The notes: generated by a model not told the origin, from the letters alone. A DNA stretch of 64,000 nt from an uncultured Candidatus Saccharibacteria bacterium (GCA_964348225.1 CAYGBM010000035.1:9425-73424); one strand, 5' to 3'; counted from the first letter of the stretch, positions 36,550 through 64,000 are shown. Program-made: numbers and translations.

Positions 36550-36860
36550 AAACCATGAAGAAAACAAGGCTTTTGCCTATTTTAACTATTTTTTTCTTAG
36601 CTGTGCTAATAACAGGAGGGAGCTGGTTTTACGCAAGAAAACCCCTTACACTTGATGCTTCAATAACAAAGAGGGGGCTCCCTCTGCCTTATTGGATCCA
36701 CACAACAGCAGCCTTCGACTTTGGCAGAGATCATCTGCCAACATTCTCACCAAAATGGCATTGGTCAATTATGGCTGTGGATTTTGTTTTTTGGTGTTTA
36801 GTCTTAGGAATGGGCTATTTGTTTTTAAGACTCTTTTTAAAACGAAAAAAATCAGAATGA
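36546..36860 (+). CDS. small 2-TM membrane protein
   Basis: 104 aa. Overlaps ruvB stop and the start of the next gene (ATGA), so it sits in the operon. Confidence 0.4.
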   Translation: MKTMKKTRLLPILTIFFLAVLITGGSWFYARKPLTLDASITKRGLPLPYWIHTTAAFDFGRDHLPTFSPKWHWSIMAVDFVFWCLVLGMGYLFLRLFLKRKKSE

Positions 36861-38164: not shown

Positions 38165-38247
38165 GACTGAAGGAAAAATCTGTTTTAAAGCAAAAGTCCT
38201 GGATCTCTCCAGGGCTTTTTGCCAACTCGCTTCTTTGATTAGCTCAA

Positions 38248-39522: not shown

Positions 39523-39635
39523 AGGTTTTGATTAGTTTGTTATTATATTATTATAACTATTATACTATTATAGCCAATCTTACAAACAAGGCAATATTTA
39601 TTTGCTCCTTAAAGAATGGGAAGAAATTCGATACA

Positions 39636-39677
39636 ATAAAAAAAATTGCGGTCGGTGAATGAACCATCACCGACCCT
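39636..39677 (-). terminator. Rho-independent terminator of the pilin gene
   Basis: Minus-strand RNA: gggucggugaugguucauucaccgacc followed by gcaauuuuuuuu. 9-bp GC-rich stem plus U-tract. Confidence 0.7.
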
Positions 39678-39690
39678 TGCAAAATGAGCA

Positions 39691-40146
39691 TCAGTATTCC
39701 CCCGGAAAGTTGCTTTCCGGAACTTGGTCTTGGAAAGAAAGGCTCCAAATAACCTGCTCCCCGTCTCCATCAACATCCCCACGAGCATAGACTATACAAC
39801 CCTTGCTGTAAGCCTCAACCCGATACTGGTAATAGACCTCATTGGGGCTAAAACCAATGCTGTCCCATTTTCTACGAGCTTCAGTGTCTTTTGGCCAAGA
39901 GATTGAGGAAACGCCAGGGACCTCAGAAGGACACCAGGGCAGTTCCCTATAAACCCCATGCTCTGCCTTGTACCTCTCTTGGCAATCCCGGATCTTCTGT
40001 AGATTCATCTTCATCTCTGACTCTCTTGCCTCGTTCTGAAACATCAGAAAGGAACGAATAGCTATAGCGGCCAGGAAAGCAATGATGGCAACCACGATCA
40101 TAAGCTCAATCAGTGAAAAACCTCTGGTTTTAACCATATCACCCAA
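39691..40146 (-). CDS. type IV pilin (prepilin-type N-terminal cleavage/methylation domain)
   Basis: KTRG-FSLIELMIVVAIIAFLAAIAI is a classic class III signal peptide with a hydrophobic N-terminal helix. The likely start is the second Met (MVKTRG...). Confidence 0.85.
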   Translation of the reverse strand: MGDMVKTRGFSLIELMIVVAIIAFLAAIAIRSFLMFQNEARESEMKMNLQKIRDCQERYKAEHGVYRELPWCPSEVPGVSSISWPKDTEARRKWDSIGFSPNEVYYQYRVEAYSKGCIVYARGDVDGDGEQVIWSLSFQDQVPESNFPGEY

Positions 40147-45791: not shown

Positions 45792-47153
45792 TTAGATCTT
45801 ATCATACAGCCTTTGACGTATTAAATTAATCTCAGTGAGCAAAGAATCGTCCTCTTCTATTTGTTTGGAGATTTTTTCGTAAGCGTAGATAGCCGTTGTG
45901 TGGTCTTTGCCTTCAAACTTTCGACCGATTGAAGGATAAGACTCTTGTAATTCCTGTCTTAGGAGATACATAGCTATTTGTCTTGGCCTGACGATTTCTT
46001 TTCTTCTTGTGGGCAAGAAAAGGTCTTCTCGATTTAGGTCATAAAAAGAAGCTACAACCTGAATAATTTTCTTAGAATTTGTAGCCTTCTTGGGCGAGGC
46101 AATTAAATTTCTTAAAAGTTTTTTTACCACAGTCAATTCTGGGCTTTTTTGGTTGAGTTTCTGGAAAACAATTAAGCGATTTAAGGCTCCCTCCATATCC
46201 CTGATATTCCTTTGGATGTTTGTTGCAATATACTCCAGTATTTCAGAGCCAAGCTTAATGTCTTTTTCGCTGCACTTAGATTTTAAAATCGCAATTCGTG
46301 TTTCAATATCAGGTGCCCCAATGTCCGCCATCATTCCACCTTCAAACCTTGACCTCAATCTTTCTTCAATAGCTGGAATTGCATTGGGAGGACGGTCGGA
46401 GGAGAGAATAATCTGTTTTTGGGCCTGGTAAAGAGTATTGAAAATATGGAAGAACTCCTCTTGGGTTTTCTCTTTCCCAGCAAAGAATTGGACATCATCC
46501 ATAATCAGCACGTCAATTTTACAGAGCTCTTTTTTTAGGTTTTCAATTTCTTGATTTCTGATTGATTCAACAATTTTTGAAATAAATCTTTCTGAGGTCG
46601 TATATTTAACCACGCTTTTCTGGGGAAACAAGCCAGCAACGCGGTTGCCTGTTGCCTGGAGAAGATGTGTTTTTCCCAGGCCAACTCCTCCATAAATAAA
46701 CAAAGGATTGTAAACAACCCCTGGCTTCTCAGAAACCGCCCAAGCGGCTGCATGAGCTAATTCATTAAAGCCGCCAACCACGAAATTATCGAAAGTATAG
46801 CGAGAGTTTAGGTTGGTTTTTTGGTTAACCTTGAACTCCTGGAATTGGAGCTGGGGCTCTGAAACAGTTTCTTGGTGCTTTGTCTTTGGTTTGGGTGCTG
46901 GTACGTTTTGAGTTTTTACAATAAAGTCAACCAGGCGGATATTTTTATCTAGCGACCTCAAGATTTTCAAAATAAGGGACTGGTATTTAGAGCTCAGCCA
47001 TTCTTTTGAAAAAGAATTTGGCACAGAGATTGAAATTACCCCGTTTTTATTAGAGATAATTTTAGTGCTGCAAAACCAGGTAGCAAAGTTAGCTCTGGAT
47101 ACAACAAATTGTAGCTGGGCTAAAACTGATTGCCAGAGTTCTTCGTTGCTCAT
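45792..47153 (-). CDS. dnaA: chromosomal replication initiator DnaA
   Basis: AAA+ GGVGLGKTHLLQATGN. Sensor motifs. C-terminal DNA-binding domain (KDHTTAIYAYEKI). Confidence 0.9.
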   Translation of the reverse strand: MSNEELWQSVLAQLQFVVSRANFATWFCSTKIISNKNGVISISVPNSFSKEWLSSKYQSLILKILRSLDKNIRLVDFIVKTQNVPAPKPKTKHQETVSEPQLQFQEFKVNQKTNLNSRYTFDNFVVGGFNELAHAAAWAVSEKPGVVYNPLFIYGGVGLGKTHLLQATGNRVAGLFPQKSVVKYTTSERFISKIVESIRNQEIENLKKELCKIDVLIMDDVQFFAGKEKTQEEFFHIFNTLYQAQKQIILSSDRPPNAIPAIEERLRSRFEGGMMADIGAPDIETRIAILKSKCSEKDIKLGSEILEYIATNIQRNIRDMEGALNRLIVFQKLNQKSPELTVVKKLLRNLIASPKKATNSKKIIQVVASFYDLNREDLFLPTRRKEIVRPRQIAMYLLRQELQESYPSIGRKFEGKDHTTAIYAYEKISKQIEEDDSLLTEINLIRQRLYDKI

Positions 47154-50295: not shown

Positions 50296-50634
50296 TTGGC
50301 TGTTTTGGGGGCTTTGGGGGTGGTGTTATTTCTTCTTTGGTATGTACTTCCAAAGATTATCTTCTTTGTGGTGGTTTTCTTTGTGCTGGCTTTATTTATG
50401 GTGCTTAACTTCCTGAAGATTGAGGGCCAGAAAGTTTATGAAATCTTAACGACCTCCTTTAGCTTCCTTTTTTCCAAGAGAAAATATCTTTGGCAGAAGA
50501 AAGAAGGGTTAAAACCCATAAAGGTTGTAAGAAAAAGAAAAAAAGAAAAAAAGAAAGAGGAAGCTCCCTTAAGACTTGCTCCAAAGAGCAGACTGGGGCA
50601 AATCAAGTCAAAAATAGAGCTTGGACCAAAATGA
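50296..50634 (+). CDS. VirB3-like small membrane protein (TTG start)
   Basis: 112 aa. Two N-terminal TM helices and a lysine-rich tail. Stop overlaps the start of the VirB4 N-domain ORF (ATGA). Position immediately upstream of VirB4 is typical of VirB3-like proteins. Confidence 0.45.
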   Translation: MAVLGALGVVLFLLWYVLPKIIFFVVVFFVLALFMVLNFLKIEGQKVYEILTTSFSFLFSKRKYLWQKKEGLKPIKVVRKRKKEKKKEEAPLRLAPKSRLGQIKSKIELGPK

Positions 50635-51266
50635 GACTAGCTGCCCAATCTTTTTTACAATTTGACCAGATTAGGGAAGGGGTAATTGTGCTGAAGAACA
50701 AAGCCTTGAGAGGGATCTTGATGGTGTCTTCGGTAAACTTTGAATTGAAGTCAGCAGAAGAACAAGACGCCATCATTTTTCAGTTCCAGAATTTTTTGAA
50801 TTCCTTAGACTTTTCCTGTCAAATCATCATTCAATCAAGAAGACTCAACATCACCGGCTATTTTGAGAAGTTAAAAGAGCTTGAACGAGGGCAAAAGAAT
50901 GAGCTGTTAAAAATCCAGACCATTGAGTACCGAAAGTTTGTGGAAAAACTGGTGGCTAAAGGAACCATCATGACAAAACAGTTTTTTGTTGTTGTGCCCT
51001 ATACCATAGGCGAAATGCGGGGTATAAAATCTACAACCCCCTTTAAAAAAGGCGTGAGCATGGCTTTGACTGAAGAGGTATTCCAAAGATGTAGAGATCA
51101 GCTTTACCAGCGGATGGAATTTGTGGGCATTGGCTTGAGAAGATCTGGGTTGGGGGTTGTGCCTCTGACCACTCCCGAGCTCATCGAACTCCTTTGGGGC
51201 TGGCACCATCCAAAAGAATCAGAGGTTGGCTATTACCCCGAGATTTTACCAGAGTTTATGAAGTAA
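50631..51266 (+). CDS. virB4: VirB4/TrbE-family ATPase, N-terminal domain encoded as a separate ORF
   Basis: Start at MRLAAQSF. The block LQFDQIREGVIVLKNKALRGILMVSSVNFELKSAEEQDAIIFQFQNFLNSL...QIIIQS is the hallmark N-terminus of Gram-positive-type VirB4 proteins (I-dG-I...NF-L-S-eEQ). Ends 2 nt before the ATPase ORF, in a different frame. Confidence 0.6.
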   Translation: MRLAAQSFLQFDQIREGVIVLKNKALRGILMVSSVNFELKSAEEQDAIIFQFQNFLNSLDFSCQIIIQSRRLNITGYFEKLKELERGQKNELLKIQTIEYRKFVEKLVAKGTIMTKQFFVVVPYTIGEMRGIKSTTPFKKGVSMALTEEVFQRCRDQLYQRMEFVGIGLRRSGLGVVPLTTPELIELLWGWHHPKESEVGYYPEILPEFMK

Positions 51267-51268
51267 TC

Positions 51269-53089
51269 ATGAAACTTCCCTCTTTTTTCAAAAAAGGAAA
51301 AATTATTGAAAAGCTGGAAATCCAACCAGCAGAGATCAAGGTAGAGGACATTATTGCCCCCTCTTCCATTGAGGTAAAGCAGAACTACATTAAGCTGGGC
51401 GAGAGGTTCTGCAAGTCGTTCTTTGTTTTCTCTTACCCAAGGTATCTCTCTGCTGGCTGGCTTTCCCCTGTTGTTAACCTGAATTATTCTCTTGATATCA
51501 GTTTGCACATCCACCCCGTTGACACCGGGGCTGTTTTGAAAAGGCTGCGCAAAAAACTCACTGAAATCCAAGCTGAACTCGGGGAGAGGCAGGAAAAGGG
51601 ACTAATCAGAGACCCAGCTTTGGAGACAGCCTACAAAGATATTGAGCAGCTAAGAGACGAGCTTCAAACAGCCAGAGAAAGGGTTTTTCGCTTAGGGCTT
51701 TACCTTACTGTTTATGGTGATGATGACAAAGAATTAAGAGCGGTTGAAAGCCTTATCAGGTCAATTTTTGAGGCAAGATTAATCTATGTTAAACCAACTC
51801 TAATGAGAGAGAAAAAGGGGTTTTTCTCAACCCTTCCCTATGGGCTGGACCAAATACTGGTTCACACCCCTATGAACACTGCCCCTCTCTCTAGCATGTT
51901 TCCCTTTGTTTCTCCAGACCTGAGCGCCAACGAGGGGATCCTTTATGGCTTGAATATGCACAACAGCTCAATGGTTTTGTTTGATAGGTTCAGCTTAGAG
52001 AACGCGAACATGGTCGCCTTCGCTAAGAGTGGAGCTGGCAAGTCGTATTTCTGCAAGCTGGAAGTGCTTCGTTATCTGATGCAAGACATCGGCGTCATTG
52101 TCATAGACCCGGAGAACGAGTATGAGTTCCTGTCTGATGCTGTTGGTGGGGCTTTCTTTAAAATATCTTTAACCTCTCCTCACCACTTAAACCCTTTTGA
52201 CTTACCACCCGTTGAAGACAGAACACCAGAAGACGTTATAAGAACGAATGTTATTAACCTGGTCGGACTTTTAAGAATAATGCTCGGGGGGCTGACCCCA
52301 ACAGAGGACGCCATAATTGATAGAGCCTTAACTGAAACGTATGCTGCCAAGGACATTACCCCGGACAGTGACCCTTCAACCTGGAAAGACAAAATCCCTA
52401 TAATGTCTGATTTTGAAGCAGTGCTTTCTGGTATGGAGGGGACAGAGTCTTTACTCAAAAGGGTGAGAAAGTTTACCAAGGGGAGTTATGCTGCTTTTTT
52501 TAACAGCCCTTCAAATGTTTCTTTAGACCAGAATCTTATTATATTCGGAATCCGCGACATGGAAGATGAGCTTCGTCCTATGGCAACCTTTATTATCTTG
52601 AGATACATCTGGAATCAAATCAGGTCGGTGATGAAAAAGAGGATTCTGCTGGTTGATGAAGCCTGGTGGTTGATGCAGACAGAGGACGGGGCTTCTTTCT
52701 TGTTTGGTATTTGCAAAAGAGCAAGGAAATACTGGCTGGGCGTTTCAACCATCACTCAGGATGTTTCAGACTTTATGGGGTCAGCCTACGGCAAGCCTAT
52801 TATTACCAACTCTTCTTTGCAGCTTTTAATGAAGCAAAGCCCAGCCACCATTGATGTTGTCCAAAAAACCTTTAATCTGACCGAGGGTGAAAAGAATACT
52901 CTTCTTCAATGCGATGTTGGGGAAGGCATCTTTATCGCTGGACAAAAAAGAGTGGCTTTAAAGGTTATTGCTTCTTACGCTGAAGACCAGTTTATAACAA
53001 GCTCGCCAGAAGAAGTGAAAAAAATTAAAGAAGCCAAAAAGAAAATGATTAAAGAAGGCTACGCCCCACCAAGAAGGGGCATGTCTTAG
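51269..53089 (+). CDS. virB4: VirB4/TrbE-family ATPase, ATPase portion
   Basis: Start at MKLPSFF. FVFSYPRYLSAGWL...LHIHPVD block. Walker A AFAKSGAGKSYF. Walker B RILLVDEAWWLM. C-terminal GICKRARKYWLGVSTITQDVSDF. Confidence 0.8.
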   Translation: MKLPSFFKKGKIIEKLEIQPAEIKVEDIIAPSSIEVKQNYIKLGERFCKSFFVFSYPRYLSAGWLSPVVNLNYSLDISLHIHPVDTGAVLKRLRKKLTEIQAELGERQEKGLIRDPALETAYKDIEQLRDELQTARERVFRLGLYLTVYGDDDKELRAVESLIRSIFEARLIYVKPTLMREKKGFFSTLPYGLDQILVHTPMNTAPLSSMFPFVSPDLSANEGILYGLNMHNSSMVLFDRFSLENANMVAFAKSGAGKSYFCKLEVLRYLMQDIGVIVIDPENEYEFLSDAVGGAFFKISLTSPHHLNPFDLPPVEDRTPEDVIRTNVINLVGLLRIMLGGLTPTEDAIIDRALTETYAAKDITPDSDPSTWKDKIPIMSDFEAVLSGMEGTESLLKRVRKFTKGSYAAFFNSPSNVSLDQNLIIFGIRDMEDELRPMATFIILRYIWNQIRSVMKKRILLVDEAWWLMQTEDGASFLFGICKRARKYWLGVSTITQDVSDFMGSAYGKPIITNSSLQLLMKQSPATIDVVQKTFNLTEGEKNTLLQCDVGEGIFIAGQKRVALKVIASYAEDQFITSSPEEVKKIKEAKKKMIKEGYAPPRRGMS

Positions 53090-53100
53090 TTACTGTTTTA

Positions 53101-56100
53101 ATGCGGCTCACAAATAGCAAAAAGCTTCTCTTAGCTTTGTTGGCTGTTGGCATTTTATTTCAAGCAGGCGTTGTGTTAGCTTTGGAGTATGAATATCCCA
53201 GTCTGCCTGGCATTGGGGTTTTAAAAGAGGACCAGCCGCTCAGCTTTTACATCAAATATTTTGTCAATCTTTTCTTTTACATTGTTGCTGGAGCTTGCGT
53301 GGTGGTTATAATCTTTGGCGGGATTTTGCATATTATAGCTTCTCAAAAGCCTACCACCCTGGTTAAAGCCAGAGAATATATCAGACGAGGCCTTTTAGGT
53401 CTTTTAATTTTGCTCTGTTCTTTTTTGATTCTTTACACTATCAATCCCCAGCTTTTGCTTTTTAAAATAGACCTTGAAGAAGCAAAAATAGCCTTAGCCC
53501 CGGGCGAGAGAGAGCCTGAAGAGCCCAAAAAAGCAGGGTTTTTAGAAGTGATTCCTGGTGAGCTGGTAATGGATTCCCTCCAGTTTCTTCAGGGCAACGC
53601 TACTTTAAGTGAGGAGTTTGTCGGCGATTTCATCGCAGGCCCCGCTTTTCCAGAATATCCCCGTTTTGAAGTGTCTTTTCAAGAAGCCAAGATTTTAGCA
53701 GAGGCGCTAATTGAAAAAACCGAAATTCTGCATAATTCTTTTTGGGAATGCTGTAAGTGCGGCAATTCCTATGTTCATTATTATTTTGAGATGAAGCTGA
53801 GAGGCGCAGAATGCGGGTGCCTGAGCGGAAAAGATGAGATAATCATTGGAGGCAAAGATATAAATATCACAGACCTTGATACATGCGTTAAAGAAATAAG
53901 GGGCTGTCATAGGGAACGGATAGAATCGTGTAAGGCCTGTATAGCTGCAGGAGGAACTCACGATACCTGCTCGGGCTGTGATTTAGATGAAAACACAGCA
54001 GCCTGCGGTCAGCCAAGCGACTGTTGGGCTTGTAAGAATTTCTGCAGCCAGTGCGGGTGCAGTCCTTCCTGCTTGCGACAAAAAGGGTTAAGAGATAAAA
54101 ATGGCAACTTGGTTCCTTTTGGTGCTACCCCAAAAATGATTGATGAAATCATCAGCTATAGAAGGGATGAGATACTCGGGATTGTCAGCAAGGTTCGGGC
54201 TTTAAAAACAAAGGTGGCTGGGGTTCAGCTTACCTTGCACGACAAAGCCTTAAATGTTATCAAGGCTGCCTATATTATGCAGCATGGCGATGATTTCCTT
54301 TTTCAAACCGAGCTTGAGCAGATTAAAAGAGATTTTGAAAAAGGGCTTGTGTTTTTGAAAGATATATTAGCTCAGAGAAGGTTCACTAAGGAGGATGCTT
54401 CCTCGCAGAACATTTTAGCACAAGACAGCCCTGATGATTTTGAAGATGAGCCAGCAGACGATAGTTTGTTTAATGTTGAATTTCTAGTTCAAACATACCC
54501 GAACTGGTTAGCCACTAAAGAAAAGGTTTTAGAGACTAGGGAAAGCTCAAGTTATTTCACTTTCTATATTCCCATCACAGATGAAATCGGCATTTTTCTC
54601 CGCCAAACCTTAAAGCATAACGAGAAAATAAAACAAGAGGCTGAAGCCTCAAGCCTGTATTTGGTTATTGCTGGTTTAACCCCTCAAGAGTTCCAAGCCC
54701 TGATTGCTGAATGCTTCAGAGGGGCTTTTGGCAATGTGGAGCTTGAAACAATATTTACCAAGCAGGAAATGGAAGAGCTCTTTGATATGGTGATGAGTCT
54801 GGGAATAAGCGAAGGCTTGGGGCAGACAGCCCTTGTTAATATTGACTCTGGCAAAATAAGAGAGGAGATTATTAAAGGCATGGAAGAAGAAACAAAAGAC
54901 AGGCTTCGTGAGAAAGCAGCTGTTTCAGCAGCGGTGATGAAGTGCCTGATTGACTATTGCGGTGGGCCAGCAGGGGTCAGCAGAATGAGCGCCTGCGCTG
55001 CTTGTTCAGCTGGTGAGCCTTTGGGTTGTGGTCGGTGCGCCTGCGGTGCAGACATCACCCAAGAAAAGGTTGGAGAGTGGCAAAGCAAATGCGAAAACGA
55101 TATACCAGCTGATTTTATTTCAAGACAGTTGATTAAATTTGTCACAACAGATGTCCAGGCTTTATTGCCAGACTCCATTGAAAAACTGCTTAAAAGCAAA
55201 GTGGAAGAGGTTATTTTTGATAAAGACCTCAGGGAGTTTTACTTAGATAAAAGCCTGCTTGAACTTTTGCAGAGAGGGGCTGGCGGCATTGCTGAAAACG
55301 TTATCCAGGAGGAATTTCCTGAAATCATTAAGCTTTTACAGACCCAGCTTATTACCTTGTTGCCTAATGCTGTTGGCAACCAGTTGGGTAAGGTTGACCA
55401 GTGGCTTACCGACTACTTTGACAAATACGAAGAAATAGTCAACAAACAAATTGATGAATGGGTCGCCTGGCTCACCGGCAAAATTACCGGCTGGATAGAA
55501 GAGAAATTCGGCTCTAAAAAATACGCTGAAGAGGTGCTCAAAACACTTAAAGAAACTGACGCTTTAGCTGTTGAAGACTTTCTTGACAAGTACGCTACTT
55601 ATGAGGAGGTGGTGCTTCAAGGCACTGGAACCCCTTGTTGTGAGGACAAAGATTGTCCTGCTGCTTTGGGGCCAGGCGGAGGGGATCTTGACCAGGAAAA
55701 TCAGTGTAGGGAGGCAACTTCAAAGTGCGATTCTTCAGCACCCGATGGCGAGTGCAAGTTAGTAGAGAAAAAAAGAGGCATTACTTCAAAACAAGATTTT
55801 GTTGAGCACTGCAAAGAAGAATTAGCCAAGTCTGCAGCTCCCGACCAGACCTTGGCTGACATAAGGGTAGCTTGCGAAGGCCCTATGTGGGATAGCGTGG
55901 CTGATGTTGTTGAAAAAGAAAGAGACAGGCAGGTGGTTGAAGCAGTAACCGACCTTGATACCTACACAGATATGCTTAAGGAGTGGGGCGGTGAATTTAA
56001 AAATGTGATGGTAAGTCAGTTCAAGGCATTGCCTGGCCAGTTCTTGGCAGCTGTTGTTGAGATTTCCATTCAAACAGCAGTTGAGTATGTAAGGGTTTGG

Positions 56101-59100
56101 ACACAGGACAAGATTATGCCCTATATCTACCCCTACTTGAAGCAAGCTAAGGATTTCAGAGAGGGCTTTCGCAGTTTGCTGTCAGCCACCATCAAGGATG
56201 TTCTGCCCGCCTTTTTAAAGAGGGTTTTGGAAAGAAATCTGATTGATAATCTCAACGCCTTGCTGGAGGAATTGTGCAAGGCTGGCAGAAAGAAAGTAGA
56301 AGAAGGCCAGCCCCAGGCGTTTGTTCAGCTTGATACATATAGCTGGTTAACAGCAGAGTATAATGTTCCAGCTGAAACAGCAGAAAGAGCCTGTAGTTTA
56401 GCCAGAAATCTTAATGCTCCTCTGCGTGAAAAACTGCCAGAAGACATTCAAGAAGCCCTGAAAACAGAACTTATGAAGTTTTTGCCAGATAAATGGCAGC
56501 AGGCTTTGAACAAAAACTTAGCTGAACTTCTTTTCGAAGAGTTTGGCATTCCCAACCTTGCAGAACTTATTCAAGCTACACCCAAAAAACTTCTTTGCGG
56601 TGAATTGCCCCTTGCTGAAGGGGGGGCTACCACTTGGCAAAGATGCAGTGCTGCTCAAAACCCGGACGGCACCTTTGATGAAACCAAACTAACAGATTTG
56701 GAAAAAGTTGCTTGCCCATTTATTGACACTTTTTGCCAGAAGTCGGTTCTGGATATATTTCCCTGGCTCAGTCAAAAATTAGGCGCTCTTATCACTGGCA
56801 TACTGCAAAGAGAGTGTTTCTTTGTTTGGGGCAAGGAATGCGGCATAAGCGGAGGTCCTAAGGACTGCAAAAGATGCGAAGCCAATGAGATGGCTTTTAA
56901 AGATAAATGCCACACTGAGTGTTTGGGCAGAAAGATTTCAGACCCAGACCTTGATTGCACAACAGGTGGTACATATGAAAAAGACTGCAGAGCAAGAGAG
57001 GTTGAAGAGGCAAAGCTTGGCTGTGAAAGCTGCAATGCCTTTTTTGAGCAGAGCTTAGGTTTCTCTTTCCTATACTATCCTATCAGGTGCAAGCTTAAAG
57101 TTAAGTGGGGATTCTCTCCAGATGAAGGATACTTTAACTTGCCATCAGCAACCTGTCCTGACATACCTTATCCTCCAACCAATGTTGAGCCAGTTCCTGA
57201 AGAATTGGCTGAACAAATAGAAAAAGAAACATCTATTTATCAATGGTTTTGGGTTATTTTTGCGAAATTAAGACCAGAGATTGACGCTATAGCCAGAAGG
57301 CGGGGGCTTTGGAATGAATGGGCTGTTAAAAAAACAGTCCTCAGAGATAATGAGCCGCCAATGACCTTGCGGGACGACATTAAAGCAACCCTCAATCTTG
57401 ACAGATTCCCTGACAAGCCAGACGAAGTAGAGGAAGCCTTCCAGGTGTTTTTATCCTACTTTCTTGAACAAAGAAAGCTCTATGACCTTTTAACAGATGT
57501 TCCTTTGGGCGTGGTAAAACCCATTGACTTTGAAGGCAGGTCAATTTTAAGAGAAAAAGGACAGGGCGAGAAAAAGAACTTTTTAGCCAAAACAATCTGG
57601 GGCGTTTTGCAAGCAGGCTGCCAAAGGGTTAGAGATGAATTTGACCAGAACATCAGGCCTTCTCCTCGTCCTGCTCCCTATGACCAATTGAGTTCAGCAG
57701 AAGTTGAGGCTTATAAAACAGCCTACAAGATTTGTGTGAATTTAGATTCTACTTTAGGTGTTGCTGTTGGTATTGATAAAAAACTGGTTGAATACACTAA
57801 TGGCTATTACAATATGTTTGTTCTGCTCAGGGACGAAAAACAGGATTACTGGGCGCCTGAAGAAAAACCTGAAAAGTTAAGAGAGCTTTTGAACTATATG
57901 TTCAACAAAACCGCGGTCAATGCTTTGTATGATGGAGGAGTAAAGCTGCAGCAAACAGGCAGTTCTTGGATGTTGCCCGTGTGCCGGGCATTAAAATCCT
58001 CTCCCATAGCTGATGAACTGCGCGTTAAGAAGGAATGTTGTGAGAGAGAAGGAGCAGGCGCTCAACAGACCCGCTGCGTTCAAGGGGCAGATTTGGAAGC
58101 TTTGGGTAAATACATGCAGAATTTGGCTGTTTTGCTTGGCGGTGGGCCTGTCAGCAAAACATTAGGCCAGATGATTCTTGAGAAATGGCCATTCCTTAAC
58201 AATGAGGCAATTATCAACCAGGTTTTTGGCATAATATGCGATAATGTCTGCTCTGGTGAAAGTGATCCAAATTGCCACACCAAATGCATGGGGCTTTTGC
58301 AAAAATCTTTGGCTCAAATATTCAAGGTTGAAGAAGAAATAAGGCTGTTTAACAAGGTTCAGGATGAGTTAAAGAAAACGCCAGCCGAACTCTTGAGTCT
58401 TTTGTTACAAAAACACGACAAAACCCTGCTTGACTTGCTTGACCTTGACCAGGAAACCAGGGATATTCTTGCAGAGCCCATCTCTGAATATTTGGAGGAT
58501 AAGCACTTTATTCTTGGTCGTACCTTTATTGATATACTGGGTGCTGGTTTGGGGCTGGATAAAGACCTGAAAACTGCTTTGGATTTTTATGATGAAGAAG
58601 TTGAGCCGAAACTAAAAAAAGGCCTTAATAAAATCCAAAAGATTATTCAAGACGGGTTTGACCTTATGATTGAAACCCCAGAAGCTATCCTTGCTTATAT
58701 TGCCAAAGTTACTAACCAGCAATGGATGGATAGATTCAGAAAGAGGTTGTTTATGAATATTACAGGCGGTTGTGAGGTAATGGGATATAAAGAATGGAGC
58801 ATTAAGCCCGAACATTTAATGGAATGGTATGTAGATCCTTTGAATGAGGGCAGGGTTTCTGGCGACCTTTTAAACGCTATTATGGAAAAAGGCTTTTATT
58901 TCTTACAAGAAAAAGCAATTGTTGTCTCTACCAGTGAAGCTAGCTGGACCGTAACTGATCCCAACGGTAATGTTTATTTTATTACTCTTGAAGGAGATGA
59001 GCTGAAGATTACTTTCCGCAACCCAGAATGTACACCACCAAGGGTGTACATTAAAGAAAACCAGGAATGTTGTGATTTGGGCAAGTCATTGTTCTGCAAA

Positions 59101-59388
59101 AAAGCAGAAGAAGGGGAAGAGTGCCTGAGATGTCGCTTGCTGGGCATGGGACAAACTAAAAACGACTGCGTTTCAGATGAAAAATACATAGAAGAAGAAG
59201 ACGAAGCCACAGGCCAAACGCTTAAAAAGTGCTGTCGGGGTGAGCCACCTAACATAGATGGAGAGTGCTGCCAAACAGTTATTGATTGCATTGTTGACAA
59301 AATAAGCTACTTTTTAATCACTGGCTTAACCGATGCTTTAACCAGCGGCTCCCCAGCCAATGAAGTAGCGCCAGGACTTGAACCATAG
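53101..59388 (+). CDS. giant (2095 aa) cysteine-rich protein with N-terminal TrbC/VirB2-like pilin hairpin
   Basis: Signal peptide (LLLALLAVGILFQAGVVLA). Hydrophobic helix 1 FFYIVAGACVVVIIFGGILHIIAS, basic loop QKPTTLVKAREYIRRG, helix 2 LLGLLILLCSFLILYTINPQLL. Then ~1950 aa of acidic, helical, Cys-cluster-rich sequence, e.g. CKACIAAGGTHDTCSGCDLDENTAACGQPSDCWACKNFCSQCGCSPSC. Confidence 0.6.
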   Translation: MRLTNSKKLLLALLAVGILFQAGVVLALEYEYPSLPGIGVLKEDQPLSFYIKYFVNLFFYIVAGACVVVIIFGGILHIIASQKPTTLVKAREYIRRGLLGLLILLCSFLILYTINPQLLLFKIDLEEAKIALAPGEREPEEPKKAGFLEVIPGELVMDSLQFLQGNATLSEEFVGDFIAGPAFPEYPRFEVSFQEAKILAEALIEKTEILHNSFWECCKCGNSYVHYYFEMKLRGAECGCLSGKDEIIIGGKDINITDLDTCVKEIRGCHRERIESCKACIAAGGTHDTCSGCDLDENTAACGQPSDCWACKNFCSQCGCSPSCLRQKGLRDKNGNLVPFGATPKMIDEIISYRRDEILGIVSKVRALKTKVAGVQLTLHDKALNVIKAAYIMQHGDDFLFQTELEQIKRDFEKGLVFLKDILAQRRFTKEDASSQNILAQDSPDDFEDEPADDSLFNVEFLVQTYPNWLATKEKVLETRESSSYFTFYIPITDEIGIFLRQTLKHNEKIKQEAEASSLYLVIAGLTPQEFQALIAECFRGAFGNVELETIFTKQEMEELFDMVMSLGISEGLGQTALVNIDSGKIREEIIKGMEEETKDRLREKAAVSAAVMKCLIDYCGGPAGVSRMSACAACSAGEPLGCGRCACGADITQEKVGEWQSKCENDIPADFISRQLIKFVTTDVQALLPDSIEKLLKSKVEEVIFDKDLREFYLDKSLLELLQRGAGGIAENVIQEEFPEIIKLLQTQLITLLPNAVGNQLGKVDQWLTDYFDKYEEIVNKQIDEWVAWLTGKITGWIEEKFGSKKYAEEVLKTLKETDALAVEDFLDKYATYEEVVLQGTGTPCCEDKDCPAALGPGGGDLDQENQCREATSKCDSSAPDGECKLVEKKRGITSKQDFVEHCKEELAKSAAPDQTLADIRVACEGPMWDSVADVVEKERDRQVVEAVTDLDTYTDMLKEWGGEFKNVMVSQFKALPGQFLAAVVEISIQTAVEYVRVWTQDKIMPYIYPYLKQAKDFREGFRSLLSATIKDVLPAFLKRVLERNLIDNLNALLEELCKAGRKKVEEGQPQAFVQLDTYSWLTAEYNVPAETAERACSLARNLNAPLREKLPEDIQEALKTELMKFLPDKWQQALNKNLAELLFEEFGIPNLAELIQATPKKLLCGELPLAEGGATTWQRCSAAQNPDGTFDETKLTDLEKVACPFIDTFCQKSVLDIFPWLSQKLGALITGILQRECFFVWGKECGISGGPKDCKRCEANEMAFKDKCHTECLGRKISDPDLDCTTGGTYEKDCRAREVEEAKLGCESCNAFFEQSLGFSFLYYPIRCKLKVKWGFSPDEGYFNLPSATCPDIPYPPTNVEPVPEELAEQIEKETSIYQWFWVIFAKLRPEIDAIARRRGLWNEWAVKKTVLRDNEPPMTLRDDIKATLNLDRFPDKPDEVEEAFQVFLSYFLEQRKLYDLLTDVPLGVVKPIDFEGRSILREKGQGEKKNFLAKTIWGVLQAGCQRVRDEFDQNIRPSPRPAPYDQLSSAEVEAYKTAYKICVNLDSTLGVAVGIDKKLVEYTNGYYNMFVLLRDEKQDYWAPEEKPEKLRELLNYMFNKTAVNALYDGGVKLQQTGSSWMLPVCRALKSSPIADELRVKKECCEREGAGAQQTRCVQGADLEALGKYMQNLAVLLGGGPVSKTLGQMILEKWPFLNNEAIINQVFGIICDNVCSGESDPNCHTKCMGLLQKSLAQIFKVEEEIRLFNKVQDELKKTPAELLSLLLQKHDKTLLDLLDLDQETRDILAEPISEYLEDKHFILGRTFIDILGAGLGLDKDLKTALDFYDEEVEPKLKKGLNKIQKIIQDGFDLMIETPEAILAYIAKVTNQQWMDRFRKRLFMNITGGCEVMGYKEWSIKPEHLMEWYVDPLNEGRVSGDLLNAIMEKGFYFLQEKAIVVSTSEASWTVTDPNGNVYFITLEGDELKITFRNPECTPPRVYIKENQECCDLGKSLFCKKAEEGEECLRCRLLGMGQTKNDCVSDEKYIEEEDEATGQTLKKCCRGEPPNIDGECCQTVIDCIVDKISYFLITGLTDALTSGSPANEVAPGLEP

Positions 59389-59390
59389 CT

Positions 59391-59880
59391 TATAAATTAA
59401 GAATTGAAAATTAATAATTAAGAATTTAATTAAAAATTAAAAATTGTTGTGAGGTATTCAAATAAAGAAGAATTCAAGAAAGCGCTTAAGAAAAGAGCTT
59501 ACAACTTTTCAATCCAATTGGTGAACTTTACCGAAGGATTACCCAGGGGCAACACTTGCTTTATTATTGGCAATCAACTTCTTCGCAGTGGAACAAGTAT
59601 TGGTGCAAACATTGTAGAAGCCCAGGGCGCGAGCTCAAAAAGAGACTTCATTAATTTTCTCACCTATGCTTTTAAATCTTCCAATGAAACCAGATATTGG
59701 CTCGGCCTTTTACGAGATACAGAAAAAGCAGATCAAGAACAGGCTAATAGTTTGTTAACAGAAGCAGATGAGCTTTCAAAAATATTGAGTTCAATTCTGT
59801 TGTCCTTAAAAGGAAAAAAATAATTCTTAATTCTTAATTAAATTTTTAATTCTTAATTCTTAATTTTTAATTCATATAAG
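59391..59880. mobile_element. four-helix-bundle gene carried in the loop of an AT-rich palindromic element (IVS-like cassette)
   Basis: Left half-element 59391-59448 (aattaagaatt... motifs). Right half 59824-59880 (aattcttaatt... motifs, the reverse complement). The halves match the left and right arms of the intact hairpins at 48594 and 50047. Confidence 0.55.
59449..59823 (+). CDS. four-helix-bundle protein (TIGR02436; 23S rRNA intervening-sequence protein family)
   Basis: GTG start. YNFSIQLVNFTEGLPRGNTCFIIGNQLLRSGTSIGANIVEAQGASSKRDFINFLTYAFKSSNETRYWLGLLRD matches the family pattern (...R.A.SI..NIAEG..R.S.K.F..FL.IA.GS..E..T.L). Confidence 0.7.
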   Translation: MRYSNKEEFKKALKKRAYNFSIQLVNFTEGLPRGNTCFIIGNQLLRSGTSIGANIVEAQGASSKRDFINFLTYAFKSSNETRYWLGLLRDTEKADQEQANSLLTEADELSKILSSILLSLKGKK

Positions 59881-62800
59881 ATGGCAATCTTTAATAGAAA
59901 ATACATCAAAGTCCCTATTATTGCCCTAATTGTTGTTTCTTTACTTTTGCAGTTTTTTCCAGCTCCCAAAAAAGCCCAGGCTTTTGATGTGGTGGAGAGT
60001 GCTAAGAGTCTTTTAAGAAAGATTCAGCAAATAATAGAGGGAATGGTAAGGGCGATTCCAGAGTTTAGCATTAGCGGAGCAGGATTAACATGTAAGGGGG
60101 CTGATAGGATTAGTTTTTTTGGCATAGACTGCTGTAAGCTAGGAGATTTAGGCATACGGTGTTGGTGGCTTGACGATAATCCTTTCAGCCGATTTTCTTT
60201 TAGAACCGATTCAGCAGGGGATATAGAAATTGACCTCGGTTTTCTGGGTACCCTGACTCTTCCCAATCCTTTTGGCAGGCTTGATGAAGAAAGAGCAGAT
60301 AAGGTAGCCAAGCCTGAAGGCTTGGAGATTTGCAGATGGAGGATACCCACAGGCGAGAACGCAATTACTGAAGAAGATGTTGAAAAATTTTGCATTGAAG
60401 AATGCGAGGGTGCAGATGCTACAGAAACAACGTGTGATGCTTGCAAGGGGGAAAAGGTTTTAGAACACAGAAGAAAAGTCCAGCAAGCCTGCGCTGAGTT
60501 AAGAAGAATTGAAAGAACAGCAGCCAGATTAACCTATTTTGCCAAGCAGATTTATTTGAAAACCGATCCTTTAAAAGAATGCCTTTTCCTGCGAAACTGC
60601 CGCACTGTTTGCCAGTTTGCTTTTGGCACTTACAGTTTTAATTTCAATGCCATGGATCTTCTCAGCCTCATTCTGCCAATCGGCTGGCTCACCAAACTTA
60701 ACGAGATTTTGACTGTTATCGTTAATATCGGGAAAACACTCCAAACCCTTAGGACTATTTTAGAGCTCATTAGTGCTGTGCGCGCTTTTGCAACAACCAT
60801 TGGCAGTACCATCCAGGATGCTATGAGCGCCCTTAAAACTTTAACCAGAGGCTCTGTTGCCAGGTGGTTTGATGCTGACACCTGGGAGGAATTTCCTGAC
60901 AACCTTATCAACTTCCAGCTAACAAAGAACAGGGCGCTTGCCAGGATTGACGCAACCAACGAGCGCTTGAAAGAGATTGAAGTGGAAATTCTGAGCCAGG
61001 CTGGCATAAGCGAAGACAATCCAGAATGGAAAAAACTAATGATTATTTTTGAAGCTTACTCTAATGACTTCAGAAATTTTTCCAGTCTGGAGACCCCGGA
61101 TTTGGATTTTATAAAAAACGAAATTAAAGCTATTGCTCAAGCTATTAAAGAGGCTGCAGAGTTTGCTGCTGAAAAAAACAACACTGACGACCGTCGTGAG
61201 CCGCCTCAACCTCAGTTGTCAGATAATCACTTTGAAGAAATTATTTTAGGCAGAAGAGGGCCAGCCCCAGGCTTTATAAGTGAGAACGGGCTTTTGCAAG
61301 CCAAAGAAGCGCTTGACAAGGTCAGGGGGCTCGAGGTGGCGATTGTGGTTGAAGCAGAAAAGCTGGAACAGCAAGATACACTAGATGTATTGAAGAAAGC
61401 AGATGGGGTAACTGACACAGGCGTTTACGAAATCAAGGAAACCTGGCGAATGCCCTGGCCGCCAACAAGATTCGGCGTAATGAGAGAGTCTCTTGAAAGG
61501 ATTGAAGAAATCAGGTTGTCGTCAGAAGATATCCTGCCAGAGCTTGAAGAAATCAAGGATATAGAGGCTGCCTTGGCAAAAAATGCAGAAGAAAGGTATT
61601 TTAGCCCAGAGACTTATGAAAAAGCTCTTGAGGATGACGATTATCCTGATTGCGAGGGCGGAGTGGGATGCAGTGATACTGATCCTGAGCTTGTTGAATG
61701 CAAGGACCTCTGCAATGACAATGGCCAACCCTGCGATAATGACGAAGAGGACTGCAAGGACTATTGCAACAACTATCCCATAGAGGATAAGTATGATTGC
61801 CGGAGCGCCTGTGTCCTGTTTCTTTTAGACGAACCTTATCTCGCCTGTGGGAATTATTGCAATAATCGTTGCGATTCTTCTTCTTGCAGTGTTTCTAGAT
61901 GCAAGAGTGCCTGTGATGAGGGCGAGCGTACATGTGAGGATATTTGCAGAGAAGATTGCGAAGATACTTGTGGGTTCAGAGAAGGGATGTGTTCACAGGG
62001 CTTTAATGTTTGCAAGGATAAGTGCGATGATTCTACAAGCAAGCTTTGGTATCAAGATGAGATAAATTGTATAAAGGCTTGCGGGTCGTCTAACACTCGC
62101 AGCGACTGTTTTAAGGCCTGCGATGAGTTTGACAACCAGGAGGCTGAATGGAGGTGTGAAGAAGAGTGTCATAATACCTGCAATCCTTCCTGCGGTGAGA
62201 GTATTTGCAAAGATGCTTGCGAAAAAGGGCTTCAGAGGGCTGTTGATTGGTGCAGGGCTGTTTACTGCGTTGATAAATGCCAGAATGGAGGTGGCAAGGC
62301 TGAATGTACTGAAGAGAGTTGTAAAGACTGCTGGCGAGACAAACAGGATGCTTTAGCCAACCAAGCAGAGTTTAAAGCTATTCTTGACCCCTTCAGCACC
62401 CAGGCTGATTCCATAAGAAAATATATTACCTTGCATTCTACAGAGCCTGGCTCTTGCGAAACAGCCTATGGCTACGTGCCATCTTACAGTAGATTCTTTG
62501 ATTTGGAATTTGAAATAAAAGGAGGATTTTTAGATAATCTAGATTGCTTTGAAAAAGTGATAGGCAGGGAAAGGGGCTGGCCTTATCCTGCCAGAATTGA
62601 ATTTTATTTTGATGAATGGAAAATATACCTTGAAATTTTAGAAGAGCTTGCAGAGGTTGAAGAAAAGCTTGCTATTATTAAAGAAAGCCTCACCGAGCTT
62701 GAGCCCCTCATAGACGTGCCGCCGGGCAAGGAAGGCGACTTAGAGTTTGGCGATATCTTCAAAACACCCTATGATTTTATAGACGATTTGGTTGAAAAAA

Positions 62801-64000
62801 TTGTCAGAGGAGGACGGGAGGCAATTAAGATTCTTGACCTTGTTGAAACAGGCGTTACTCACGAGAAGCATTTCGGTGAAATGGCCGACGATGAGCTTAA
62901 AGCCTGCATTGAATGTTTGAGAGAAGCGCCTTATGAAAATAAAATAGATGCTTGCAATTCAGAAACAGGGGTTTGGCAAAAAGTCTGCAAGTTTGCAGCA
63001 AGGCCCTATGCTGACTATATTTGTTCCAACGACCTTGACAAAGTAAACGTTTGCCCAGATCTTTTCGAACTTAAAGAAAGATACATTGGTAAAACAACAA
63101 GCATTTTGGATGCTTTAAGCAATATTGTGGAAACAGGTGAGGGGTTAGACCAGGATTTTGACAAACATGATGTCACCCCAGAGGAGATTTTTGCAGAATA
63201 TGAGGACGCTGAATTACCTCCTTGGTTCCACAAATTCCTTGAGCTGGTATTTAAAGCCAGGGAGGCAAAGTGGGATATGCTTGATGTTCAATCATCTGAA
63301 AAAGAGCTCTCAACAGCGCCTTTGCAGGTATATGACGAAGACACATCTGGCAATGCCTGCCCGAGATGGTGCGAAGAGTTCTGCGGTAAAGAATACTGTC
63401 AAAGTTCAGGGCTGGAAGGTTCAAAGCCCGATCCTGCGTTTTGCAGTAATTGCGGCTGGGACCAAGAAGGCGTGGTTTGTTCTTGCTGGCGTCATCTAAA
63501 CCACGGAGAGCTTGTCAGGCTTTTAGAAGAGATGGTGGAAAAGGTTCTGATGGTAAAAGAAAAGCTTGAGGATGCTTCCAAGAAGATAGGCGAGATTGAG
63601 TCCCTTGAGCAGGTTTTACCATTAGCACCGCCAAACCCGCTTAAAGATGTTAGCATTGTCACCAACACTTATTGTCGCAATAAATGCATAGCAGTGGCTG
63701 GGGGCGCAACATCAGGCCCAACCTTTGACCTTTGCTACGACACTTGTCTTAAGTTAAATCCAGGCATAGCAATGAATGATATTGCCCGGAAAATCCAAGA
63801 GATGAACTGGACAGTGGCTTTCTCTGATACATTGACAGCTGGCATAAAATATAATGCCAGGAACCTTGGGCTTTTAAAAACTAAGATTCAGCAGGAGCTT
63901 GGTAAGGTACAGGGCTTAATTGCTGACCTGAACGATATTATAGGGCTTGATATAACAAGCACGCTCCCAGAAAACATTTCAGCAGCCTTGGCTGGCAAAA
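59881..64000 (+). CDS. giant secreted cysteine-rich protein, 3'-partial (>1373 aa; runs off window end)
   Basis: Translated by hand in frame from ATG 59881 to 64000 without a stop. Absent from the track because no in-window stop. Signal peptide MAIFNRKYIKVPIIALIVVSLLLQFFPAPKKAQA. Cys-dense block at ~61640-62340 (CEGGVGCSDTDPELVECKDLCNDNGQPCDNDEEDCKDYCNNY...). Confidence 0.7.
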   Translation, partial: MAIFNRKYIKVPIIALIVVSLLLQFFPAPKKAQAFDVVESAKSLLRKIQQIIEGMVRAIPEFSISGAGLTCKGADRISFFGIDCCKLGDLGIRCWWLDDNPFSRFSFRTDSAGDIEIDLGFLGTLTLPNPFGRLDEERADKVAKPEGLEICRWRIPTGENAITEEDVEKFCIEECEGADATETTCDACKGEKVLEHRRKVQQACAELRRIERTAARLTYFAKQIYLKTDPLKECLFLRNCRTVCQFAFGTYSFNFNAMDLLSLILPIGWLTKLNEILTVIVNIGKTLQTLRTILELISAVRAFATTIGSTIQDAMSALKTLTRGSVARWFDADTWEEFPDNLINFQLTKNRALARIDATNERLKEIEVEILSQAGISEDNPEWKKLMIIFEAYSNDFRNFSSLETPDLDFIKNEIKAIAQAIKEAAEFAAEKNNTDDRREPPQPQLSDNHFEEIILGRRGPAPGFISENGLLQAKEALDKVRGLEVAIVVEAEKLEQQDTLDVLKKADGVTDTGVYEIKETWRMPWPPTRFGVMRESLERIEEIRLSSEDILPELEEIKDIEAALAKNAEERYFSPETYEKALEDDDYPDCEGGVGCSDTDPELVECKDLCNDNGQPCDNDEEDCKDYCNNYPIEDKYDCRSACVLFLLDEPYLACGNYCNNRCDSSSCSVSRCKSACDEGERTCEDICREDCEDTCGFREGMCSQGFNVCKDKCDDSTSKLWYQDEINCIKACGSSNTRSDCFKACDEFDNQEAEWRCEEECHNTCNPSCGESICKDACEKGLQRAVDWCRAVYCVDKCQNGGGKAECTEESCKDCWRDKQDALANQAEFKAILDPFSTQADSIRKYITLHSTEPGSCETAYGYVPSYSRFFDLEFEIKGGFLDNLDCFEKVIGRERGWPYPARIEFYFDEWKIYLEILEELAEVEEKLAIIKESLTELEPLIDVPPGKEGDLEFGDIFKTPYDFIDDLVEKIVRGGREAIKILDLVETGVTHEKHFGEMADDELKACIECLREAPYENKIDACNSETGVWQKVCKFAARPYADYICSNDLDKVNVCPDLFELKERYIGKTTSILDALSNIVETGEGLDQDFDKHDVTPEEIFAEYEDAELPPWFHKFLELVFKAREAKWDMLDVQSSEKELSTAPLQVYDEDTSGNACPRWCEEFCGKEYCQSSGLEGSKPDPAFCSNCGWDQEGVVCSCWRHLNHGELVRLLEEMVEKVLMVKEKLEDASKKIGEIESLEQVLPLAPPNPLKDVSIVTNTYCRNKCIAVAGGATSGPTFDLCYDTCLKLNPGIAMNDIARKIQEMNWTVAFSDTLTAGIKYNARNLGLLKTKIQQELGKVQGLIADLNDIIGLDITSTLPENISAALAGK

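Follow-up and report, generated by a model that had tools for sequence, protein, structure and literature searches.

We describe an operon that encodes a type IV secretion system (T4SS) together with giant cysteine-rich proteins, located within a 64,000-nucleotide stretch of DNA from an uncultured Candidatus Saccharibacteria bacterium (GCA_964348225.1, CAYGBM010000035.1:9425-73424; this whole stretch is referred to below as 'the window'). The operon region that we studied occupies positions 50296-64000, with all of its genes on the plus strand. Its secretion genes are followed by a reading frame for a 2095-residue protein, here termed G1, that begins with a pilin-type helical hairpin and continues as a cysteine-rich ectodomain. 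We consider it probable that the region represents an origin-proximal Patescibacteria T4SS whose VirB3/TrsD/VirB4 machine handles hairpin-bearing giant surface proteins that contact a host cell.

The secretion system itself is known: the operon, its location near the replication origin, an apparatus free of a relaxase and the accompanying arrays of VirB2-like pilins have all been published (PMC10633639, PMC12102498, PMC12857230). An earlier note on this DNA, made without database searches, had described a non-conjugative T4SS-like surface apparatus; the analyses below support the setting that it proposed, which those same papers already describe. The new part is the giant, hairpin-fused, cysteine-rich protein family at the head of the 'pilin' array.

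The hairpin module and the giant protein family

The N-terminus of G1 consists of a signal peptide (residues 1-27) followed by two hydrophobic helices (approximately residues 47-82 and 84-114) and a basic loop (five lysine or arginine residues and one aspartate or glutamate). This is the layout of VirB2/TrbC-type pilins (a signal peptide, two hydrophobic helices and a short basic loop), and the earlier note's description of the first 120 residues in those terms is upheld. A model calculated with AlphaFold2 from 42 homologues comprises a signal-peptide helix and a two-helix hairpin with the same boundaries (47-82 and 84-114), at a predicted local distance difference test (pLDDT) score around 95. 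The small size of VirB2-type subunits (approximately 7-12 kDa when mature) is not shared by G1, the mature form of which would contain about 2068 residues.

We gathered 80 related loci through their VirB4 proteins and searched all of their open reading frames (ORFs) with residues 1-135 of G1 using jackhmmer, which produced 126 matches; 57 modules were aligned. The alignment contains positions conserved at 90% or more, and its conserved motifs outside the membrane helices read LExxYP, GG..Y..S.G.P....AK and TINP. PF18895 (T4SS_pilin) was matched by 46 of the 57 modules (E ≤ 0.01, best 1.1e-10), and NF045849, which represents the Mbov_0395 pilin-like protein of mycoplasma integrative conjugative elements (ICEs), by 34 (E ≤ 0.01, best 2e-10); a single module matched PF04956 (E 6.9e-4). 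The pilins of Southlakia match both PF18895 and PF04956. For G1 itself, residues 54-112 scored 23.4-23.7 bits against PF18895 (E about 5e-5; gathering cutoff 26.6), and its score against NF045849 (15.2 bits, E 0.013) is below the curated cutoff of 40 for membership. We read the similarity of the modules to the mycoplasma model as remote homology rather than membership and, on the strength of these profile matches, place the module in the hairpin family formed by PF18895 and the 'pilin-like' proteins of mycoplasma ICEs, with a predicted VirB2 topology.

G1 is rich in cysteine, with 78 such residues (3.7%) and ten CxxC motifs. The giant proteins contain 3.7-6.8% cysteine, as compared to a median of 0.76% and a maximum of 2.5% for the 39 other proteins encoded in the window, so the enrichment is real; it is compatible with the presence of oxidised extracellular domains. 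The ectodomains of G1 and of G2 (a secreted protein encoded further downstream) matched no Pfam or NCBIfam domain.

A word-indexed homology search returned one weak match for full-length G1 and none for residues 1-140. An exhaustive phmmer search with residues 1-1200 against 1.84 billion representatives gave 3451 matches at E ≤ 1e-3, with 26 of these reaching E ≤ 1e-30. Approximately 30 homologues of 1400-2381 residues, all in public data, can be aligned along the ectodomain (one of them, P0123, aligns with G1 residues 13-837 at 30% identity), and conserved motifs continue through to the C-terminus (CxCGxS, LFSVLT...SAFG, GTPKxLICGE, PYxDTLG, ECCxLG...CxPRCR and CCxTVxxCIxxKF). G1 is thus orthologous to a conserved family of giant proteins encoded beside the T4SS, and did not arise as a chance fusion. 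Compared with its counterparts in the nearest relatives, the VirB4 of the window shows 76-78% identity; for the hairpin module the figure drops to 41-45%, and for the ectodomain it is at most 25% or undetectable. A separate database entry (P0122, 1126 residues) is 100% identical over its first 231 residues to G1 residues 970-1200, and the sequence as printed corresponds to G1 970-2095; it stems from a different assembly of the same population, in which the gene was called in truncated form.

All 80 of the VirB4 relatives come from Patescibacteria metagenome-assembled genomes, with labels that include Paceibacterota, Nealsonbacteria, Staskawiczbacteria and Gribaldobacteria, in agreement with the link to ultrasmall episymbiotic bacteria drawn previously; judging by these relatives, the window organism belongs to a Paceibacteria-type group. 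The hairpin module stands at the head of one to four paralogous proteins in 65 of the 80 loci, mostly directly downstream of virB4 (at least two such proteins in 38 loci, and at least three in 18), so that genes of the PF18895/VirB2-like type are found near virB4, often as arrays. Modules within a locus are 27-62% identical (median 37%). The 101 complete proteins with an N-terminal module range from 237 to 2095 residues (median 517), with 17 of at least 1000 residues and none below 200; database matches to the module profile were mostly short gene fragments and were left out of these length statistics. Of the 32 loci with at least two such proteins, 30 have the longest one encoded beside virB4, and the first array protein is also the richer in cysteine (median 4.1% versus 2.0%). 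In some relatives, proteins of approximately 236-291 residues with a C-terminal hairpin are encoded upstream of virB4.

Two additional hairpin proteins are encoded on the minus strand of the window, far from virB4 (Table 1). The larger, G0, is a second giant protein that possesses a signal peptide and a weak fn3 match, and it was recovered independently by a jackhmmer search seeded with the G1 hairpin. Because the hairpin is N-terminal in G1 and C-terminal in G0, it accepts giant fusions at either end, and the placement of the cysteine-rich part, after the hairpin in G1 and before it in G0, fits a VirB2 topology with both termini outside. The gene directly upstream of G0 encodes the smaller protein, of 177 residues, which from its sequence is a candidate for a pilin of conventional size.

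The operon and its chromosomal setting

The genes from the start of the operon up to G1 are tightly packed, with gaps of -4, 2 and 11 nucleotides (the first and second genes overlap by 4 nucleotides). The first encodes a PrgI/VirB3-like protein of 112 residues that scored below threshold against PF12666 (PrgI; E 0.088) and matched positions 37-122 of NF045975, corresponding to the VirB3-like N-terminus of a mycoplasma VirB4 model, with an E-value of 2.3e-8; homologues are present upstream of TrsD/VirB4 in 33 of the 80 related loci. The second gene product (211 residues) aligns solely to the N-terminal ~100-150 positions of VirB4 models (NF045975 109-231 and NF045971 4-108) and matches TrsD (NF041427) at E 2.8e-6. 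The individual PrgI and TrsD scores of these genes are under the curated cutoffs. All of the ORFs listed in the earlier note (VirB3-like, VirB4, the 2095-residue protein, the four-helix-bundle protein and the cysteine-rich protein) exist as it had described them, with the correction that the VirB4 N-terminal domain is a separate, TrsD-like gene. That split is not a frameshift artefact, because in 77 of the 80 related loci VirB4 is likewise preceded by a TrsD-like match, which occupies a different frame in 51. An alternative genetic code was rejected along with a frameshift, as the split is conserved, mostly involves different frames and agrees with published TrsD.

The VirB4 ATPase (606 residues) scored 346 bits against NF045971 (CD1110 family; cutoff 325) and matched PF19044 at E 7e-28. 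Its Walker A (AKSGAGKS, residue 252) and Walker B (ILLVDE, residue 459) motifs are both intact, and it is 53-78% identical to its counterparts in the 80 Patescibacteria genomes. A monoderm VirB4 preceded by TrsD-like and PrgI/VirB3-like genes, in an order (B3-TrsD-B4) common to the related Patescibacteria loci, is the composition of a Patescibacteria-type (MPF-FATA-derived) chromosomal T4SS. In most relatives a small membrane gene lies directly 3' of virB4 (for example L001:1814-2353, L003:6299-6673 and L009:11740-12129). Its product is almost free of cysteine, contains two or three predicted hydrophobic segments, and displays the motifs SPEA..ML near its N-terminus and PFWT..VY.ELK at its C-terminus; it has no Pfam match, and no homologue anywhere in the window. 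Promoter and terminator scans returned matches at chance level only.

The G2 gene, whose start has been corrected to that given in Table 1, extends past the end of the window. No hairpin is present at either end of the protein, while its signal peptide and parts of its body are conserved in three related loci (L001-L003); a weak TrbC match (E 0.07) covers only the signal peptide and was rejected. A 34-nucleotide exact DNA search identified a 5.2-kb contig (L081) that is 99.95% identical over 2001 nucleotides and reaches 3.2 kb past the window. Relative to the window it shows one insertion or deletion that breaks the G2 frame and is either an assembly error or a strain variant. The contig contains the end of G2, followed (L081:3250-5211) by G3 (517 residues, signal peptide only, 6.2% cysteine) and by a new protein that begins with a hairpin module, placing a second hairpin gene three genes downstream. 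The same order of four genes is found in L001 and L002. G2 and G3 are probably partners in the same surface structure.

Between G1 and G2 lies a gene for a four-helix-bundle protein whose membership in PF05635 (E 5.9e-26, 91.2 bits against a cutoff of 33.8) and TIGR02436 (E 2.8e-30, 104.8 bits against 24) is clear. The gene occupies this position in this genome only, the homologues of G1 and G2 being directly adjacent in L003, and copies of the same families occupy unrelated positions in 14 related loci. This scatter suggests a mobile or frequently inserted small gene, which is probably an unrelated insertion with no part in the apparatus.

The operon is flanked by housekeeping genes, with dnaN and dnaA on the minus strand and rnpA, yidD, yidC and jag directly upstream on the plus strand. 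The cumulative GC skew reaches its minimum near 40 kb (dnaA lies at 45792-47153 on the minus strand), and the coding strand is mostly minus on the left and plus to the right of 47.9 kb; the skew minimum and the strand switch therefore place the replication origin inside the window. The operon has a GC fraction of 0.39-0.45, like the rest of the window, with no compositional break. Among the 80 related loci, virB4 is found within 10 kb of at least one of dnaA, dnaN, rnpA, yidC and jag in 47.

The descent of VirB4, TrsD and PrgI from monoderm conjugation systems (PMC12102498) and the resemblance of the hairpin module to a mycoplasma ICE pilin-like protein would both accord with a decayed or atypical ICE, of which the giant proteins would be the mating adhesins. 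Window ORFs of at least 110 residues, however, produced no match to a relaxase, VirD4 or VirB6 at E ≤ 1e-3 in a Pfam scan, as the earlier note had claimed, and no integrase match was found in the 64 kb. PF00437, whose members also include VirB11, was matched only by a PilB/PilT-type ATPase some 16 kb away from virB4, and the operon contains no candidate for a VirB1-like hydrolase or VirB8. In the next 3.2 kb, where ORFs of at least 60 residues were read by eye and not Pfam-scanned, we saw no conjugation function: the complete conjugative gene set that had been named as the finding that would make this an ordinary ICE is not there, and the sequence holds only cysteine-rich ORFs (the end of G2, G3 and the start of the next hairpin protein). 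Neither a relaxase nor a coupling protein is thus found near the operon across the 64 kb and the adjoining 3.2 kb, and the position near dnaA and rnpA is that of Patescibacteria T4SS. The tests for an ICE or conjugative plasmid covered relaxase, coupling protein, integrase and compositional island, all without a match (oriT and attachment repeats were not searched for). Relaxases are also rare in Patescibacteria generally, with 109 homologues in 103 genomes (PMC12102498). Because the same origin-proximal position recurs in 47 of 80 species-level relatives, we conclude that the locus is a vertically inherited chromosomal system and not an ICE, in line with the non-ICE setting beside dnaA, dnaN, rnpA, yidC and jag proposed earlier; the ICE explanation is already largely refuted, and we regard it as very improbable.

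Table 1. Coordinates of features in the 64,000-nucleotide window
Feature	Position	Strand	Description and basis
G0, second giant protein, 1593 aa	7315..12096	-	6.7% Cys; PF18895 hairpin at C-terminus, residues 1520-1588, 38.8 bits (cutoff 26.6)
Small hairpin protein, 177 aa	12262..12795	-	6.8% Cys; C-terminal hairpin, PF18895 residues 102-169, 25.6 bits, E 1.3e-5
368-aa ORF	32786-33892		No Pfam match
T2SSE-type ATPase (PilB/PilT-type)	33903-35210		386 bits
Secreted Lamin-tail-domain protein	36692-38164		
Protein with six transmembrane segments	38248-39522		
Type IV pilin	39691-40146		N-methylation motif
PrgI/VirB3-like small membrane protein, 112 aa	50296..50634	+	Hydrophobic hairpin at residues 1-40, basic tail
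TrsD-like protein, 211 aa	50631..51266	+	VirB4 N-terminal domain as its own gene; profile matches
VirB4 ATPase, 606 aa	51269..53089	+	Monoderm/MPF-FATA type; NF045971, PF19044, Walker motifs
G1, 2095 aa	53101..59388	+	Signal peptide, pilin-type helical hairpin and ~1975-aa Cys-rich ectodomain; ORF, profiles
G1 pilin-type hairpin, residues 47-115	53239..53445	+	After signal peptide (53101-53181) and conserved LExxYP motif
Four-helix-bundle gene, 124 aa	59449..59823	+	23S rRNA-intervening-sequence protein family; PF05635, TIGR02436
G2, secreted Cys-rich protein	59881..64000	+	Signal peptide only, 5.2% Cys; 1373 aa in window, full length 1780 aa

Elsewhere in the window, a cluster related to type IV pili lies by the origin (32786-40146; Table 1), with its type IV pilin and its protein of six transmembrane segments both encoded on the minus strand. 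A signalling cluster on the minus strand (21869-28938) encodes two single-domain response regulators, a PAS-PAS histidine kinase, and V4R, PAS, HAMP and FIST proteins, and seemed large for a reduced genome. A 735-residue ORF on the minus strand (17195-19402) has no Pfam match, no cysteine and no hydrophobic segment, and gave no tblastn match in the 80 related loci. No tRNA or Rfam match was found in the whole 64 kb.

Possible roles of the hairpin-bearing proteins

We infer a series of steps (Sec/YidC insertion, hairpin recognition, mounting and host contact) through which this region might operate. The PrgI/VirB3, TrsD and VirB4 core derives from monoderm conjugation machinery, and the genes downstream of it encode a set of exported, disulfide-rich surface proteins. 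Sec and YidC would insert the hairpin with both of its ends outside, the ~120-residue module providing a Sec signal peptide, the short LExxYP stretch and two membrane helices joined by a basic loop on the cytoplasmic side; because both ends would be outside, the 1975-residue ectodomain of G1 would fold and oxidise outside the cell. By analogy with the dislocation of VirB2 from the membrane, which depends on VirB4, the hairpin may be a handle that is recognised by VirB3/TrsD/VirB4 and perhaps extracted from the membrane. A complete sheath built of 230-kDa subunits is unlikely for steric reasons, so proteins of the G1 type might be placed at the apparatus in low copy number or at its tip, or form a fixed collar outside the cell, where their large and fast-diverging ectodomains, with G2 and G3 as partners, would contact the host cell.

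A more specific form of this proposal is that in Paceibacteria-type Patescibacteria a VirB2-type pilin has been turned into a modular carrier, in which the hairpin is the handle that VirB3/TrsD/VirB4 would pull out of the membrane and giant, rapidly diversifying, disulfide-rich ectodomains are borne on either end and mounted on, or at the tip of, a host-docking T4SS structure. We offer this only tentatively, as a possible reading. If true, it would parallel the modular type IV pilins on the T4SS side and represent the first T4SS pilin found to carry its own adhesin.

Several observations weigh against a T4SS-handled, pilin-derived module. The PF18895 score of G1 falls under the Pfam cutoff, which the paralogue G0 passes at 38.8 bits. 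An hhalign comparison of the module profile with three annotated VirB2/TrbC proteins of Ti-type plasmids (templates verified by a 100% tblastn match to 'pilin major subunit VirB2') gave a probability of 0.1%, a weak negative given the thin template profile, and a sequence-profile search of the PDB with the module returned chance matches to membrane proteins only. To our knowledge no experiment shows a PF18895 protein forming a pilus, and the name of the family is an annotation. The TrbC/VirB2 kinship that the earlier note had proposed to check by profile search is found at the level of the PF18895 family, and fails for G1 at the cutoff, for PF04956 (one module of 57) and in the hhalign comparison; homology of the module to experimentally proven pilins rests on the annotations of others, an example being the Southlakia pilins that match both Pfam families, and our own hhalign test did not establish it. 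Structural comparison fared similarly: the predicted hairpin agrees with the earlier note, and a Foldseek search with the hairpin model gave nothing specific (best E 1.9) and could not discriminate, because a plain helical hairpin is a generic fold. For that reason a Foldseek match to an archaeal conjugation pilus (rank 44, E 6.2) was rejected as evidence either way.

Other points against the proposal concern the ectodomain and the operon. The fold of the ectodomain is not predicted (AlphaFold of G1 residues 1-900 with 28 giant homologues gave a mean pLDDT of 54, and a PDB fold search returned meaningless axonemal and F-BAR hits), and a role as an adhesin is a guess from size, location, cysteine content and divergence. 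No VirB6-like polytopic protein is encoded beside the operon, and known systems involve VirB6 in pilin recruitment; the small gene for a protein with three transmembrane segments that follows virB4 in most relatives is likewise absent from the window operon. Finally, co-location may reflect co-regulation and not physical interaction.

The hairpin could instead be a mere membrane anchor, in which case G1, G0 and their paralogues would be T4SS-independent, Sec-exported adhesins or envelope proteins that are kept near the origin for reasons of dosage or co-regulation. The location of G0 and the small hairpin protein 40 kb from virB4, among housekeeping genes, indicates that adjacency to the T4SS is not needed; the module has no detectable similarity to the three bona fide VirB2 proteins and its fold is generic; and large cysteine-rich extracellular proteins are common in candidate phyla radiation (CPR) genomes, with no stated link to a T4SS (PMC4736985). 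The module is no generic pair of transmembrane helices, however, as its conserved LExxYP, GG..Y..S.G.P...AK and TINP motifs lie outside the membrane, and it specifically matches two T4SS-associated families. In most of the 65 loci where it occurs, it also stands directly after virB4, with a conserved order of sizes, and the T4SS cluster of Southlakia includes small homologues from the family, which are essential (PMC10633639). On balance we think a simple anchor rather unlikely.

The same pilin homology and synteny could also be explained if proteins of the G1 type are true polymerising pilins that form a 'bottle-brush' pilus bridging to the host, with a large ectodomain on every subunit. No N-terminal-module pilin of conventional size is encoded downstream of virB4 (all 101 complete proteins contain at least 237 residues), and the termini of VirB2-type pilins can face outward, as F-pilin with short peptides added at its C-terminus presents them on the surface of the pilus. 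Against this, the geometry of VirB2-type pili leaves each subunit an outer surface of a few square nanometres, too little for every subunit to carry a 230-kDa domain, and hairpin proteins of conventional size do exist that could form a shaft (177 residues in the window, and approximately 236-291 residues upstream of virB4 in relatives). A filament is not known from any Patescibacteria T4SS, and a recent review treats one as a possibility (PMC12857230). We judge such a pilus to be improbable.

If the giant hairpin proteins are parts or substrates of the T4SS, they are the likeliest candidates for the surface with which a very large group of uncultivated episymbionts contacts its hosts, and the extreme divergence of their ectodomains would point to determinants of host range. 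Whether the Patescibacteria T4SS builds a pilus is an open question (PMC12857230) on which this giant family bears directly, and its ~2000-residue members are concrete targets for labelling in cryo-electron tomography, surface proteomics and structural work. If the hairpin is only an anchor, the result would come down to a recurrent way in which adhesins are tethered, still of value to annotation, and counting every PF18895 match as a 'pilin' would overstate the number of pilus subunits.

Relation to known systems

The closest described systems are those of other Patescibacteria. Wang et al. (2023) reported that Southlakia cannot grow epibiotically without a T4SS that includes a series of predicted pilins and in which neither a relaxase nor a coupling protein is recognisable (PMC10633639). 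The role of the essential Patescibacteria T4SS has been described as unknown (PMC11665869), and a 2025 review considers the system unique among monoderms for its potential to make conjugative pili (PMC12857230). A 2025 survey of Patescibacteria by Quinonero-Coronel et al. described a VirB4 related to MPF-FATA, with PrgI/VirB3 and with TrsD as its most abundant partner; VirB2-like proteins, found using PF18895 and PF04956, in arrays of 2-11 genes with a mean identity of 25%; and T4SS located near dnaA, dnaN, rnpA and rpmH in Paceibacteria (PMC12102498). Its table lists VirB2 hits to PF18895 without protein lengths and its text is silent on their size (PMC12102498), so giant hairpin proteins may already be counted within its VirB2 calls. 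No searchable paper that we found discusses the size and layout of hairpin-headed giant proteins. The earlier note's statement that a pilin module fused to a giant ectodomain is not a described architecture consequently holds for the searchable literature, while the architecture itself is common in public data.

The operon in the window resembles the Southlakia epibionticum cluster (SEML1_0006-0019) and the T4SS of the 2025 survey in its PrgI/VirB3, TrsD and VirB4 core of monoderm (MPF-FATA) ancestry, in its divergent tandem PF18895 arrays beside virB4, in having no relaxase or coupling protein nearby and in its position near dnaA and rnpA. The Southlakia pilins differ in being small (126-138 residues for SEML1_0017-0019, those whose gene lengths were read), and in SEML1_0014-0019 the PF18895 hairpin lies at or near the C-terminus, ending between residues 99 and 180. 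In the family described here the hairpin is N-terminal and is followed by 110-1975 extra residues, with a cysteine-rich protein of ~2000 residues as the first gene of the array. Unlike the Southlakia T4SS, the window operon does not include VirB6, VirB1-like hydrolase or VirB8 candidates.

The diderm VirB2/TrbC/TraA pilins (PF04956) share with G1 a signal peptide, two hydrophobic helices, a basic loop, termini that lie outside and a gene position beside virB3 and virB4. They differ in mature size (about 70-100 residues, versus about 2070 for G1) and in gene order (B2-B3-B4, versus B3-(TrsD)-B4-pilin here); the host in the present case is a monoderm from which no filament is known, and to VirB2 of the Agrobacterium type there is no detectable profile similarity. 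The Mbov_0395 family of Mycoplasma ICEs (NF045849) has a similar two-helix module and sits in a VirB4 system that belongs, like the present one, to a single broad monoderm lineage, and the mycoplasma VirB4 model NF045975 also matches the B3, TrsD and B4 proteins of the window. That family is represented by a model of ~80 positions from a conjugative ICE, whereas the module here is fused to giant proteins in a chromosomal system without a relaxase.

Two further parallels concern large surface proteins. Extended VirB6 paralogues are known from Rickettsiales, such as Anaplasma VirB6-4, with 4322 residues (PMC7648143). In those cases it is the polytopic VirB6, and not a two-helix pilin, that is extended; the hosts are diderm, the extensions are not cysteine-rich and there is no sequence relationship. 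What the two have in common is a membrane subunit of a chromosomal, non-conjugative T4SS that has acquired a very large hydrophilic extension in an obligately host-dependent bacterium, and the paralogue arrays described here parallel the duplicated VirB2 arrays of Anaplasma and Bartonella. Large cysteine-rich extracellular proteins have been noted in CPR Peribacteria with no link to a T4SS or a pilin hairpin (PMC4736985); by description, as distinct from a comparison of homology, they resemble the giant proteins of the window in having a signal peptide, more than 1000 residues, a cysteine content of 4-7%, variability between strains and a proposed role in attachment.

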